IMG/VR virus record: IMGVR_UViG_3300048599_000798
Location: 1-36,887 of that record
DNA: 36,887 nucleotides
Reading direction: 5' to 3' (one strand)
Source: a virus
Taxonomy: Duplodnaviria > Caudoviricetes
Made by a program: the position numbers and the translations under genes. Of the stretch, positions 1 to 10,267 are shown one piece after another (the first letter of the stretch is position 1; each line of letters starts with the position of its first letter). The notes under the pieces are model-generated. The model did not search any database and was not told where the DNA came from. It saw only the letters and a list, made by a program, of their open reading frames with translations.

Positions 1-414
1 TTAGAATTCATATATCCCTTCAATGTAAACCCCACTCGGTATTTCAGTTCGTTTCAAAGAACCGCTATAAACCGGATGGTTACACCATTGGGATAGTTTT
101 ATGGAAATGCTATCACCGAGGTTGAGCTGTATGTAAAATTCATAAAGTTGGCCATTTGGACTAAATGCCGGTACCGTCGAAAAATATGTTTCATACCCGT
201 TGGTAAAGGTTTTTTCGGTCGTTCCTAGTGCAAGCCAATTATTAAACCTATAATGAAGGTCTAATGTCCATACTTGACCGGGAAATTCATCTGCCAATTC
301 ATAACGGAATCCGGCATACCCGTGTATACCGTTTGTTTCTATGGCATAAACCGAACCGGTATAGATTAATAAAAGCGTTATTAAGCACATTGACAGCAAG
401 AAAAATTTCTTCAT
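1..414 (-). CDS. Secreted, small outer-membrane beta-barrel-like protein
   Basis: Sec signal MKKFFLL...SVYA; amphipathic aromatic-rich strands; C-terminal YEF; SD AAGGAGG upstream. Confidence 0.6.
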   Translation of the reverse strand: MKKFFLLSMCLITLLLIYTGSVYAIETNGIHGYAGFRYELADEFPGQVWTLDLHYRFNNWLALGTTEKTFTNGYETYFSTVPAFSPNGQLYEFYIQLNLGDSISIKLSQWCNHPVYSGSLKRTEIPSGVYIEGIYEF

Positions 415-1548: not shown

Positions 1549-1980
1549 TTATTCATGCCCATGATCGGGTCTTGGTGGTTGGGAAACGCCTAAATATTCC
1601 ATCAGAGCCGCTTGAAATACCTTAGAATAATTCACGCCTTGAGCTTCTGCCATCTCCTTTAACCATGCCGGTATCGTAAGATTTGTTTTAACCGCCCTAT
1701 TATCCAATTCATTCCTTACAAGATCAGGAAAAATTGTTACGGGAGATACTAAATATCCGGCGGTGGTTTCAGGATCTACCTGTGGTGTTTTAGATGGTAT
1801 AGGTATTTCGTCTCCGTCCTTTTCCATACCATATATATGCAGTTCTAATGCTTCAGTAGCCTGCTTTTGCGCTTTTTCAAAATCCTCTCCATAACTTATA
1901 CATCCTGGAATGTCAGGAAAATATACACTATACCCTGTTTTGGCCGGTTCAAATACAGCTAAATAGGTGAGTTTACGCAT
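1549..1980 (-). CDS. hicB: HicB-family antitoxin
   Basis: YSVYFPDIPGCISYGE..A.EAL N-domain; C-terminal VKTNLTIPAWL..GVNYSKVFQ DNA-binding domain; follows hicA. Confidence 0.95.
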   Translation of the reverse strand: MRKLTYLAVFEPAKTGYSVYFPDIPGCISYGEDFEKAQKQATEALELHIYGMEKDGDEIPIPSKTPQVDPETTAGYLVSPVTIFPDLVRNELDNRAVKTNLTIPAWLKEMAEAQGVNYSKVFQAALMEYLGVSQPPRPDHGHE

Positions 1981-2016
1981 AATCATCAATCTCCTTTCTT
2001 TGGGTCAAGCAGAGCT

Positions 2017-2205
2017 TTACTTTAACCCTGCTTGCTTTAGTATGCTATTAAGTGTACCGGGAGCAATGTCGCCTGTATGATTTGGCACTGTGACTTTACC
2101 GGGCTTAGTAGGGTGTTTCAGTTGAATATGAGATCCTTTGGTTCTCGCTTCGACCGGCATCCATCCATCTTCGTGTAAAATTTTTAATATCTCTCTTACT
2201 GTCAT
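2017..2205 (-). CDS. hicA: HicA-family mRNA interferase toxin
   Basis: KGSH..LKHPTKPGKVTVPNH..GTLNSILKQAGL. Confidence 0.95.
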   Translation of the reverse strand: MTVREILKILHEDGWMPVEARTKGSHIQLKHPTKPGKVTVPNHTGDIAPGTLNSILKQAGLK

Positions 2206-2375: not shown

Positions 2376-3000
2376 TTAAAAACTGACTTCCATTCCAATC
2401 TTCAGGCGTCGATCATAATCCTGCTCATACCGGCCATAAGCAACCCAATTCCGCCAGAATTGAAAATCCTTTTGAATGTAGCCACCTATTCCAACTTCAT
2501 TGAAATTTGTTACTACACCCAGACCAATATGCCAAAGTTTTTTTGGTTGATCCGGAACGTCTATAGCCACTATCGTAGAATTCTGAAATTGGGTAGATAT
2601 ATCCAAATATTCCTGGCCGACTATGACCGTGGTTTCTCCAGTAAGCGGATGAACCCCTTCACCTATTTTCTGGCCGGAGAAATCCAAATAAATGGTTTTA
2701 ACCTCCCCGGTTGCTGGCGCCGTAAATTTATCCCCGACCGCCAAAGTTAAAACAGGTTTCAGCGCCGGTAAATCGTCCGGGATAGGGATAGGTTGCGGAG
2801 ATTGGTTTCACCGGTACCCGGCTGGTTAATTGTCCTGTTTTTTGCTCCTGGATAATAACATCGGCCTTTTTTTCTTCGGCCTTGGTCGGATTTTCAACCA
2901 CCTTCACAGGCTTCCCCGGGCCGGGCTTTGGCTGAAATCGGATAAATAAAAAAGTCGTAATCAATGCGCCGATTACGACCCCAATTAATATTTTTTTCAT
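2376..3000 (-). pseudogene. Spanin-position membrane protein split by a frameshift (track ORFs 2728-3000 and 2376-2744)
   Basis: Upstream ORF has an N-terminal TM. Downstream frame is open from 2807, has no SD and reads as a natural continuation (SPQPIPIPDDLPALKPVLTLAVGDK), ending in beta-strands and terminal Phe. Confidence 0.6.
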
Positions 3001-3019
3001 TATACAAAAGCCCTCCTTT

Positions 3020-3721
3020 TTAACCTAATAATATAAAGTCTTTGTTATCATAGGCCCGGATTCTCTGACTTACTTCATATCCTTCCGGGCTTCCATCATC
3101 ATTCGTGTTACCTTCAATAGCAACAAAATGATCCGATTGAGCCTCTATGACGATCCCGGTATGAACCCATTGACCCGGCTTCCGCACAAAAAAGAGCGCC
3201 CCGTTCAATTCTGTGGAATTATGATTTTTTATGTCAGTCCCAGGAAAATACATCCCCTTACTTTTTGCGCTTTCGGCCATTAAAGCGCATGATGGAGAAG
3301 TAGTAAAGGGAAGGGGTTTATTTAGGCTTTGGCATGCTTGCCGGAGTAAAAAACTAACAAAGCCCGCACACCAAGGCCATTCAGCGCCTTCTTTATCGTT
3401 CATATATAATCTTACCCAGGGGCCTTTATTCTGTCCTCCGACTTCTCGTGGGTGAAGTGATAAATGCAATCGGGCATATTCAACCATCATTTTACCTAAA
3501 GAATTTTCACCAACTCCGGGGGTAAGTATTTGTTGGGCCGATTTTAACGGAGATAATAAACATCCCATTGTCTCATCGGTTAATTCTCCAGTTGGGGGAA
3601 GATGTTGGGCCTTTTGAAAATTAATTAAGGCTTGTTTTGTAGCCGGTCCATATATCCCATCAATTATTACACTAAAGCCAGATAAACAAAGCCATTCTTG
3701 AGCTAATCTGACATTATTCAT
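3020..3721 (-). CDS. Endolysin: peptidoglycan-binding domain plus CHAP-type catalytic domain
   Basis: DGIYGPATKQALINFQK..TG (PG-binding); PWCAGFVS, HTGIV, IEGNT (CHAP Cys/His). Confidence 0.92.
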   Translation of the reverse strand: MNNVRLAQEWLCLSGFSVIIDGIYGPATKQALINFQKAQHLPPTGELTDETMGCLLSPLKSAQQILTPGVGENSLGKMMVEYARLHLSLHPREVGGQNKGPWVRLYMNDKEGAEWPWCAGFVSFLLRQACQSLNKPLPFTTSPSCALMAESAKSKGMYFPGTDIKNHNSTELNGALFFVRKPGQWVHTGIVIEAQSDHFVAIEGNTNDDGSPEGYEVSQRIRAYDNKDFILLG

Positions 3722-4193
3722 TGCTTGGACCTCCATCAAGATGATCAAGTTTTCCTTGAATTATCTTCATGATTCCGCTTAAAATTGGGATCTCCGCCCC
3801 ATGCAAAACAGCTATTTTTTGAATATTTTCCAGAATTGAATAGGCTTCAGTAAAGATAATCGAGCTTTCAATAATTCCCTGAATAAATGCCGCGAATTCT
3901 ATCCGGCTGCATTGGTAACCAATAATTAATAAAATGCCATAGATTGCCCATTTAACAAGTCCATGATATAATCGACGGCTTTCCGGCTTAATCGTTGGAT
4001 TCGCCCAAGCATGATAATAGCCGGTAATCATATCAAATAGACACAATGTAATAATTGCGCCATATGCCGCCCGGAATGCTTCACCAAATAGTGCATGAAG
4101 TATCCAAAGAAAAATCCCGGCCATGATTTTCCATGCCGGGAATTCCCCGAGACGCTTAAAAAAATGAACAATAACATCAAAATCCGAGTTCAA
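3714..4193 (-). CDS. Phage holin (holin 4 / toxin-secretion-lysis type)
   Basis: Several TM segments; D.ITG, S..L..GLVK and EAYSILEN motifs; directly upstream of endolysin; TTG start after AAGGCGGTGG. Confidence 0.88.
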   Translation of the reverse strand: MNSDFDVIVHFFKRLGEFPAWKIMAGIFLWILHALFGEAFRAAYGAIITLCLFDMITGYYHAWANPTIKPESRRLYHGLVKWAIYGILLIIGYQCSRIEFAAFIQGIIESSIIFTEAYSILENIQKIAVLHGAEIPILSGIMKIIQGKLDHLDGGPSNE

Positions 4194-4220
4194 ACAAACC
4201 ACCGCCTTTTGATTTTTTAA

Positions 4221-4250
4221 AAATAAAAAACCGCCATTTCGGCGGCTTTT
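4221..4250 (-). terminator. Intrinsic terminator-like hairpin between tail fibre and holin
   Basis: CCGCC-5 nt-GGCGG followed by a long U-tract on the minus strand. Confidence 0.7.
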
Positions 4251-4417
4251 ATGCATTAGTAAAAGTATTTCTATGTCGTATTACATAGATGGGAAGAGGT
4301 AAAAAGAATTTGTAAAGACAAATGCTTTAATTTTCATTACAGCATTGAGGTGATGAAATGAAAAACCCTCTTCCCAAAAATATTGTAACATTGATTAAAT
4401 GGAAAATAAAGTTAATA

Positions 4418-6025
4418 TTATTCAAAACTCGAATATAAATCCCGTTGATATATTTTAGCTGGATTATTGCTTGTCCCAAAATAAAGGTTTGCACCATCAG
4501 TCGTTAGAGCTTTGATATTACTGTCTATGCTTAATAAACTTACTCTTGCAAAGTTATTGGGATCGATCTTTACTACTCTCCCAGGGGTCATAGCAAAACA
4601 CGCATATAAAAATCTTCCATCATAACTCAAATCTTTAATACCTTGATCATTAGTATCAAGAGTTAAAGTTGTTCCAATCTGCGTCATAGTTGTAGGATTT
4701 AGTTTAACGATTTTTGTTGCCGATCCTAAATCCGGGCCAATAGCTATATATAAATAGGTCCCATCTGAAATGGCCTTTTGACCCGTATTTTCACCCGCAG
4801 CTGCCGTAAATGTGGTAACTTTAGCCATCGTAGAAAGATTTACTTTTATTACTTTAGCAGGATTACTAACCATAGGACATACAGCATAAGCAAAACTGTT
4901 TCCCATATATACTAAATCGTAGCATCCGTTTTCTCCCGTATCAAATGCAACATGTGATACTCTGGATAAATCTCCAGTCCCGTTAGGATTAATTTTTACT
5001 ATTCTACCAGGTTGTCTGTTACTTCCCACGTAAACATATGTACCATCTGTAATCATACTTGTAATGGCATCTTCATTCGGATCTGTTAAAGTTAAGGTAG
5101 CACCAACCTTGGTCATAGTATTTGGATTAAACTTGACAATACTAGCAGTTCCGTTGGTAATATAAAGATATGTTCCATCGGTAATTATTTTCTTTATTAA
5201 GCCAATGGTTGAGGATACACGAGAATCGATAGTCATATTTGATATATTAATTCTTATGAGGTAGCCAGTTTGTGTTCCGGCGTAAAGATAGTTATTATAA
5301 AACAAAAGCGTATTACACGTATTGTCATCGGTAAGAGTCATTGAATTTTTTTTAAGTTTCAATACAAGATCAGGCCAAACCGCTAACATCTTTACTTCAT
5401 CCGCTTGACTTTTTTTAGATAATAAAGCGTTTTGGGCTGTAGTAGCTAATGTTGCAGTCGCCGCATTACCAGTTATATCCTCTACTAAATCACCGTCTAC
5501 ATTTCTTGTAACATGAATTCCGGTATTATTGGTATGACTTATAATCTTTTGATCTTCTATGGCGATTTCCTGATCTACGTAAGACCTCGAAGCCAATACA
5601 ACAGCAGGATCAATCTTTAAGGTAACTGTTGAAACATTGGTAACTTCTAATATCATCCGGATATAAAGGTCTTTCCCTGAACCTTCGGCCAAAGTCGGTT
5701 TATAGGTCTCCGGATATTTTCCGATAGCGATCATATTCCCGGCGTCATCGAATACGCCAGCCTCACGAACAGTAAAACCGCCTTCAGTGGTAGGAATAAT
5801 CATTTCGATAACTATCCAGTTGGGATTAGTCTGATCAGTAATAATCCGGTTTATATTTCCCCGCCATTTTTCTCTTACAAGTGCTGTTTGGGCTTCTGTC
5901 GGCTCATAATATGCCCCGTTTCCATCCCCGACAGCCATTTGAGTTAAATTTACAGCGGTTCCTTGCACCTGAGCATTTGCAAGTTTAGCCTTACCTATGG
6001 CAGTTAAAATAGTATAAAAACTCAT
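4418..6025 (-). CDS. Tail fibre / receptor-binding protein with beta-propeller-like C-terminus
   Basis: P2 gpH-like collar N-terminus (ILTAIGKAKLANA..GGFTVREAGVFD..KIDPAVVLASR); repeated (T/S/Y)DGxYLY blades. Confidence 0.9.
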   Translation of the reverse strand: MSFYTILTAIGKAKLANAQVQGTAVNLTQMAVGDGNGAYYEPTEAQTALVREKWRGNINRIITDQTNPNWIVIEMIIPTTEGGFTVREAGVFDDAGNMIAIGKYPETYKPTLAEGSGKDLYIRMILEVTNVSTVTLKIDPAVVLASRSYVDQEIAIEDQKIISHTNNTGIHVTRNVDGDLVEDITGNAATATLATTAQNALLSKKSQADEVKMLAVWPDLVLKLKKNSMTLTDDNTCNTLLFYNNYLYAGTQTGYLIRINISNMTIDSRVSSTIGLIKKIITDGTYLYITNGTASIVKFNPNTMTKVGATLTLTDPNEDAITSMITDGTYVYVGSNRQPGRIVKINPNGTGDLSRVSHVAFDTGENGCYDLVYMGNSFAYAVCPMVSNPAKVIKVNLSTMAKVTTFTAAAGENTGQKAISDGTYLYIAIGPDLGSATKIVKLNPTTMTQIGTTLTLDTNDQGIKDLSYDGRFLYACFAMTPGRVVKIDPNNFARVSLLSIDSNIKALTTDGANLYFGTSNNPAKIYQRDLYSSFE

Positions 6026-6047
6026 GGACGTTACCACCTCTCATAAT

Positions 6048-10090: not shown

Positions 10091-10267
10091 TTAACTCCTT
10101 ATTCTAATTGGATTCGGCCCTCCGGCAGTTTTAGGACATGCATCCGCATTATGATCCCTTGCTCCGCAATAATCACATCTCAATCTGGCCCGATTTCCTT
10201 GCCCGTTCCATGTCTTAGGGCAGTAATCCGTGGTATGCCCATTAGACCCGCAATATCCGCATCTCAT
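10091..10267 (-). CDS. 58-aa tandem CCHC zinc-knuckle protein (not in ORF track)
   Basis: MRCGYCGSNGHTTDYCPKTWNGQGNRARLRCDYCGARDHNADACPKTAGGPNPIRIRS; two CX2CX4HX4C motifs; SD GGAGG; fills the gap between gpX and gpD. Confidence 0.88.
   Translation of the reverse strand: MRCGYCGSNGHTTDYCPKTWNGQGNRARLRCDYCGARDHNADACPKTAGGPNPIRIRS

Follow-up and report, generated by a model that had tools for sequence, protein, structure and literature searches.

Do the two overlapping frames that close the lysis cassette of a temperate phage encode two proteins or the broken remains of one, and what would an intact product do to the envelope of its host? The stretch of DNA analysed here (hereafter the window) is a complete virus record of 36,887 nt from a temperate phage, which has an integrase, head genes of the lambda type and a contractile tail; its structural genes appear whole. 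Along the minus strand, the order is tail-fibre gene, holin (PF05105), endolysin, split gene and HicAB pair (Table 1). An earlier note on this DNA had named the split gene the third gene of a lysis cassette, and its position after holin and endolysin on the same strand bears this out. The holin is 47–62% identical to the holins ahead of intact homologs of the split gene, and the endolysin is 54% identical to the enzymes directly ahead of two of them (L010 and L011). The first frame, a 90-aa ORF, starts at 3000, 20 nt past the endolysin stop. On the plus strand, the ORF at 2460–2750 had no PHROG match.

Table 1. Lysis cassette of the window and features of the split gene.
Feature	Position	Strand	Basis and remarks
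Holin (Phage_holin_4_1)	3714..4256	-	PF05105, E 1.4e-8; longest ORF given, real start probably slightly downstream
Endolysin, PG_binding_1 plus weak CHAP-like domain	3020..3748	-	Pfam
Shine-Dalgarno AGGAGG of third cassette gene	3012..3017	-	Sequence; just past endolysin stop
5' half of gene, 90-aa ORF	2728..3000	-	Residues 1-66 are family sequence; remainder is an off-frame tail
3' half of gene, +1 frame	2376..2807	-	143 codons plus stop; ends KIGMEVSF
N-terminal membrane helix with GxxxG, without lipobox or AxA signal-peptidase site	2938..2997	-	
Terminator-like hairpin followed by T run, within helix codons	2951..2982	-	Candidate element
Interval with one extra base, start of hypervariable linker	2799..2807 (most likely 2802-2799)	-	Homology
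Predicted periplasmic long beta-strands	2559..2729	-	P0002 residues 78-134, mapped from model by alignment
Predicted outer-membrane anchor: four amphipathic strands at the C-terminus, the last ending in Phe, with beta-signal	2379..2534	-	Model and alignment

One extra base splits a single gene

The +1 frame is open from 2807 to a stop at 2376, scores as coding by phage codon usage from about 2804, and joins the upstream frame into 207 aa if one base is skipped, the length that had been estimated for the joined frames. An intact homolog, P0002 (198 aa), covers both halves, with 62% identity to residues 1–66 of the 90-aa ORF and 52% to the +1 frame over 141 aa. Homology in frame 0 stops at 2803, and homology of the +1 frame to another intact copy, L008, begins at 2798; L008 shares the Pro-rich linker, where 14 of 25 residues are identical to the +1 frame and at most 5 to frame 0. 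As homology changes frame between 2803 and 2798, the extra base most likely lies at about 2802–2799, at the start of the linker. The break had been put at about 2807–2731; it does fall within that range, which can now be narrowed to these few positions.

Judged by homology and coding signal, the 90-aa ORF and the +1 frame are halves of one gene. We rejected the reading as two separate genes, as the intact homologs span both halves in one ORF. We likewise rejected a classical Rz/Rz1 pair, which the split superficially mimics: the downstream ORF has no Cys and no signal, and the homologs are single ORFs. The 122-aa ORF that could start at TTG 2744 lacks both Cys and a hydrophobic segment (its highest KD mean over 19 residues is 0.79), no SD-like motif precedes this TTG, and the coding signal of the +1 frame begins well upstream of it. 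Our scan thus agrees with the earlier view that the absence of Cys, lipobox and SD makes this ORF no classical Rz1.

The homologs form an unnamed family

A full phmmer scan returned 58 matches, of which 52 full-length proteins (174–263 aa) were aligned. The alignment included the query P0002 and left out P0001, P0003, P0050, P0072, P0061, P0066 and P0067; these are the two window halves, a member of 297 aa, two fragments and two proteins that are repetitive and very long. None of the 52 had a Pfam match at E 0.1, and neither PHROGs nor Pfam assigned a family. Locus scans of viral contigs and annotated phages found no relatives, and those of metagenomes gave only two short chance matches. A full-text search, judged from titles and the starts of abstracts and with most subscription papers and supplements outside it, found no published description of the family. 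Among 58 genomes of the bacterial class of G001, 14 carried 31 family matches, and 18 of these, in 11 genomes, are intact single ORFs; together with the 52 database proteins, they answer the question raised earlier of whether homologs are single ORFs. One subfamily (L003, L010–L014 and L019) has about 11 residues fewer at the tip of the main periplasmic hairpin, a natural length variant.

The frameshift most likely reflects damage

The shift had been left open as mutation, assembly error or recoding. If it were programmed, the gene would yield a short anchor-only product and a rarer full-length one, a reading to which we give hardly any credence. Speaking for it, L016, which lies in a complete holin–enzyme cassette, is likewise broken by a +1 shift in the linker, and the 90-aa truncated protein occurs on 2 contigs, as against 1 contig each for 7 other window proteins. 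Against it, the closest homologs (P0074, P0002, P0018, P0020, L002 and L008) are single ORFs, and the interval 2807–2762 contains no slippery heptamer and no run of four or more identical bases. The break sites of the window, L016 and L021 have no evident common motif, P0067 and L009 are broken elsewhere, L021, L026 and L031 are remnants with several breaks, and decay extends to neighbouring lysis genes, the amidase of L014 being itself split. A conserved split with a slip motif was not found: 18 copies are intact, and the two linker-broken cassette copies (window and L016) have no evident motif in common. Recoding is thus disfavoured by the intact homologs and the missing motif, which leaves mutation or assembly error.

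We conclude that the frameshift most likely marks one damaged copy and is in itself probably unimportant, and that the window copy is probably dead, by mutation or assembly error. The second contig with the 90-aa protein slightly favours a real mutation, with the proviso that the contigs may not be independent. Since a truncated product would lack the outer-membrane part, the window prophage is likely defective at that step.

Other genomic copies are also degraded. Two are near full length with a single shift: L009, broken near its end, and L016 (1245–2043, plus strand, G003:C22), a distant member that follows a holin and a glucosaminidase and has a +1 break of its own in the linker. The rest comprise copies with several breaks (L021/L030, L026 and L029/L031), one with an internal deletion (L005) and short pieces (L004, L024, L028 and, at the end of its contig, L017, plus one place left uninspected). 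A search for split halves among proteins of 30–94 aa, an insensitive one, scored none. P0066 was rejected as a split half, being 99% identical to residues 58–210 of the intact L007.

An N-terminal helix, a predicted beta-rich periplasmic part and a C-terminal beta-signal

We consider the intact product likely to be an inverted, lipid-free single-chain spanin, and the anatomy of the family is one basis for this reading. An N-terminal hydrophobic helix of 17–20 residues is found in 49 of the 52 members, no member has a canonical lipobox, and P0002 has no Cys at all. The C-terminal residue is F, W or Y in 44 of 52 members, compared with 8 of 45 other window ORFs taken as a control; the remaining 8 members have no aromatic last residue. 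Position –5 is hydrophobic in 48/52 and position –6 is Gly in 40/52, and the last strand shows a strict alternation of hydrophobic and charged columns, so that the family carries the aromatic C-terminal beta-signal with alternating hydrophobics that is a feature of BAM substrates. The N-terminal transmembrane topology and C-terminal beta-signal claimed for the window gene thus hold across the family. No C-terminal transmembrane helix was seen: the second-best stretch of 17 residues has a KD mean no higher than 1.52 in any of the 52. Between the helix and the C-terminal strands lie 79–167 residues (median about 131 in the 52 members), including a linker of 3–55 aa.

An AlphaFold2 model of P0002 (pLDDT 91.6, monomer pTM only 0.61) comprises a helix, four long strands (predicted at residues 44–59, 78–92, 98–114 and 118–134) and four C-terminal strands. 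The predicted periplasmic part is rich in beta structure, with one 6-residue helix and no coiled coil in the model; modelled alone, it reaches a pLDDT of 65. The earlier description of a membrane anchor, a Pro-rich linker and amphipathic strands thus stands for the anchor, the strands and the KIGMEVSF end, and needs amending for the middle, most of which is predicted to be beta-hairpins. As four strands cannot close a barrel, the C-terminal part would have to assemble as an oligomer; a three-copy prediction of residues 22–198 (score 0.00 in two runs, mark 0.42) speaks neither for nor against this. Foldseek found no match in the PDB at E 0.001. With VIA, the whole model reached a best Z of 5.4, and the periplasmic part (pLDDT 65) one of 3.2; these results do not demonstrate a new fold, and residues 139–198 align alike to barrels and soluble sheets (best Z 5.4, rmsd 8.2, 58 aligned).

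The same anatomy could belong to an outer-membrane lysis factor that forms no bridge, its helix being cleaved or released and its strands forming an oligomeric pore that weakens the outer membrane. The single N-terminal hydrophobic stretch, with lysines ahead of it, could be a signal peptide as well; there is no coiled coil; and the cassette context and host evidence presented below would be identical for a pore and a spanin. What makes the pore unlikely is found around the helix, which at 17–20 residues contains GxxxG in 30 of the 49 members that have it and is followed by AxA in only 3 of 49 and by PxP in 31 of 49, and in the 79–167 periplasmic residues, which a free pore would not need. The rarity of AxA and the frequency of PxP and GxxxG favour an uncleaved, self-associating anchor.

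Intact homologs mostly follow diverse endolysins

A peptidoglycan hydrolase identified by Pfam stands immediately ahead of 15 of the 18 intact copies, and two more (L015 and L008) are separated from one by a single small membrane gene; the enzyme of L008 has no Pfam match and is nonetheless 34% identical to the M15 peptidase of L013. Like a u-spanin, then, the family is a single gene within the cassette, with 17/18 intact copies within two genes of a hydrolase, and the homologs are lysis-linked, a point on which the earlier note had asked for a check. The preceding enzymes are of five unrelated types (Amidase_2, Amidase_3, glucosaminidase, PG-binding plus CHAP, and M15 peptidase), which indicates that the gene holds its place while the enzyme is exchanged. 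The exception, L018 (1336–3377, plus strand, G052:C170), is intact, has a small membrane ORF ahead of it and terminase genes immediately after it, and its 1.5-kb flank contains no hydrolase.

This exception bears on a different possibility, that the gene is a late-operon passenger with no part in lysis, such as an envelope protein for lysogenic conversion or superinfection exclusion, or a virion component. In the window, the gene is the last ahead of a moron-like region (HicAB), L018 sits before terminase, and a Foldseek search gave a weak match to a 'structural protein' of a Cellulophaga phage (E 0.024). A passenger would hardly be expected to sit so close behind the endolysin stop whichever of five enzyme types precedes it, or to accompany both a contractile-tail module (window) and a different tail module (L001), and no promoter-like match lies between endolysin and gene; we regard this explanation as quite improbable.

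Two lipobox pattern scans found no spanin-type lipoprotein ORF in the window or in 19 cassettes, with one loose match that proved to be the helix of the L018 gene itself; the patterns, used without a positive control, overlooked a lipoprotein-like ORF in L001 (4988–5815, plus strand), which has tail genes on either side and precedes the lysis cassette.

The gene might instead act at the inner membrane or the wall, as a holin helper or a glycopolymer-targeting factor like Lcc6 of LambdaSo or LysZ of corynephages. Such factors do occur in lysis cassettes, according to the accessible parts of bioRxiv 2024.01.23.576932 and 2025.06.24.661397, and the family has one inner-membrane helix. We find this very doubtful, as it would leave unexplained both the conserved amphipathic four-strand C-terminus with its terminal aromatic residue and the absence of any spanin-like gene from these cassettes.

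The hosts have two membranes and no LolA match

One copy, L001, comes from a Bacillota MAG. Throughout the class of G001, Omp85 is present in 58/58 genomes and LpxC in 54/58; for the 14 genomes with family matches, the counts are 14/14 and 13/14. These figures fit the expectation of diderm rather than monoderm hosts, which had been put forward as a check. Among 401 genomes sampled across the phylum, full-length matches were found only in G001, and four borderline matches were unrelated longer proteins. Going by the genomic matches, the hosts appear to belong to one two-membraned Bacillota class, a confinement that may reflect descent as much as envelope type. Protein similarity would place the host of the window in the same class, through the holin and endolysin identities given above and a left-end ORF 70% identical to a G051 gene.

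LolA was matched in 0/58 genomes (completeness unstated) by a model that matched two archaea and missed Bacteroides among 14 controls. The corresponding result for LolB (0/58) was set aside as evidence, since its model matched only E. coli among the 14 controls. With no LolA match in the hosts, lipoprotein spanins likely cannot work there. The accessible text of PMC11784454 likewise describes diderm Terrabacteria, Halanaerobiaceae excepted, as lacking Lol and outer-membrane lipoproteins.

A proposed route across the envelope

The proposal of an inverted spanin starts from what is observed: one gene, placed after the endolysin, with this sequence anatomy, in hosts that have Omp85 and LpxC and give no LolA match. 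The N-terminal helix would be an uncleaved inner-membrane anchor, N-in and C-out, and about 130 residues of beta-hairpins and linker would cross the periplasm. Host BamA would recognise the aromatic C-terminal beta-signal and insert the four strands, which would oligomerise to close a barrel. The cell wall would restrain this bridge until holin and endolysin remove it, whereupon the bridge would draw the membranes together and rupture or fuse them. The beta-strand anchor would thereby stand in for a lipoprotein anchor that the host cannot deliver to its outer membrane. Localisation, oligomerisation, dependence on BAM and membrane fusion are the steps that we infer.

We counted several points against a spanin: the position of L018 away from a hydrolase, the lack of a coiled coil, the pTM of 0.61, the pLDDT of 65 and the 8/52 non-aromatic ends. 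Whether the family amounts to a third spanin class, with an N-terminal helix, a self-assembling BamA-inserted barrel and an all-beta periplasmic stalk that fuses membranes, seems to us an even question.

Comparison with known envelope proteins

The coiled coil is the fusion-driving element in lambda Rz. The family shares with lambda Rz the N-terminal type II inner-membrane helix and the place after the endolysin, as given in the accessible text of PMC6139136, and differs from Rz/Rz1 pairs in lacking coiled coils, a conserved Cys and a lipoprotein partner and in having homologs that are one ORF. To the u-spanin gp11 of T1, as that text describes it, the family is similar in being one chain that ends a holin–endolysin cassette, with a predicted beta-rich periplasmic part and predicted anchors for both membranes. 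It is inverted relative to gp11, with its inner-membrane helix at the N-terminus and neither a lipobox nor a C-terminal helix, and its outer-membrane anchor is predicted to consist of BamA-inserted beta-strands rather than a lipid delivered by Lol. Because it lacks the defining features of u-spanins and of Rz/Rz1 pairs, we file the family in neither class; it may still work like them.

A more distant resemblance is to DUF6808 (PF20647) and related uncharacterised phage proteins, which have a similar predicted architecture (Foldseek E 5.6e-4), whereas none of the 52 members matches Pfam at E 0.1 and the TM-score is only about 0.23. Unnamed phage clusters in Atlas are look-alikes (feature score 0.91–0.92), with the DUF6808 family on 12–15% of cluster members. 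DUF6808 is functionally uncharacterised, and a literature search found no paper on it. Four amphipathic C-terminal strands per chain with an aromatic end also recall the anchor of trimeric autotransporters and other barrels with four strands per subunit. Such proteins have a cleaved signal and a surface-exposed passenger; in the family, by contrast, the N-terminal part is predicted to be periplasmic and tied to the inner membrane. The disruptin gp28 of phiKT, in the accessible part of bioRxiv 10.1101/515445, offers another route of outer-membrane disruption by a non-lipoprotein; as a 56-aa cationic helical peptide, it has no architecture in common with the family. The accessible texts of PMC10367356, PMC8354205 and PMC10136315, which mention spanins of Bacteroidota phages, contain no such design.

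Possible outer-membrane lysis without lipoproteins

Its position makes the unnamed family, with its predicted all-beta stalk, a good candidate for outer-membrane lysis that needs no lipoprotein. Every spanin described to our knowledge requires an outer-membrane lipoprotein. Diderm Terrabacteria are reported, in the accessible text of PMC11784454, to be without such lipoproteins, so that the way their phages breach the outer membrane needs explaining. The available text of Kongari 2018 (PMC6139136) counts 91 of 677 phages without spanins and raises the possibility that an outer-membrane protein could act as an o-spanin, for which the family supplies 18 intact, cloneable candidates. If the proposal is true, it would describe how phages can lyse diderm hosts whose outer membrane carries no lipoproteins, through a bridge between the two membranes that uses no lipid anchor, and would provide an annotation rule for 'spanin-less' phages. 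It would also extend BAM to a new type of substrate, one that is inserted while still anchored in the inner membrane.

Other features of the window

The hairpin within the helix codons (2982–2951, minus strand) has 13 pairs followed by a T run and may attenuate expression of the split gene. Pairing holds in 96.6% of cells over 9 related copies, and one change is two-sided; this does not exceed letter shuffles (138/500). Synonymous-codon shuffles reached the hairpin energy in 2–9 of 500 cases for 5 of 7 motif-selected copies and in 81 and 176 for the other two; because the copies are related, this evidence is weak.

Directly after the broken gene lies a HicA–HicB toxin–antitoxin pair (1549–2205, minus strand) with its own strong promoter-like site at 2258–2230, which could help to keep a prophage with impaired lysis. 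The left-end ORF (1–414, minus strand) encodes a 137-aa protein with a signal-peptide-like start, a C-terminal Phe and no Pfam or PHROG match, and looks like a small outer-membrane protein at the prophage end. In the tail fibre (4418–6037, minus strand), the only Pfam match is an N-terminal collar domain, and the repeat-rich C-terminal part is common to L007. Between tail genes, a 58-aa ORF (10091–10267, minus strand) contains two CxxC-x-H-x4-C zinc-knuckle-like repeats.
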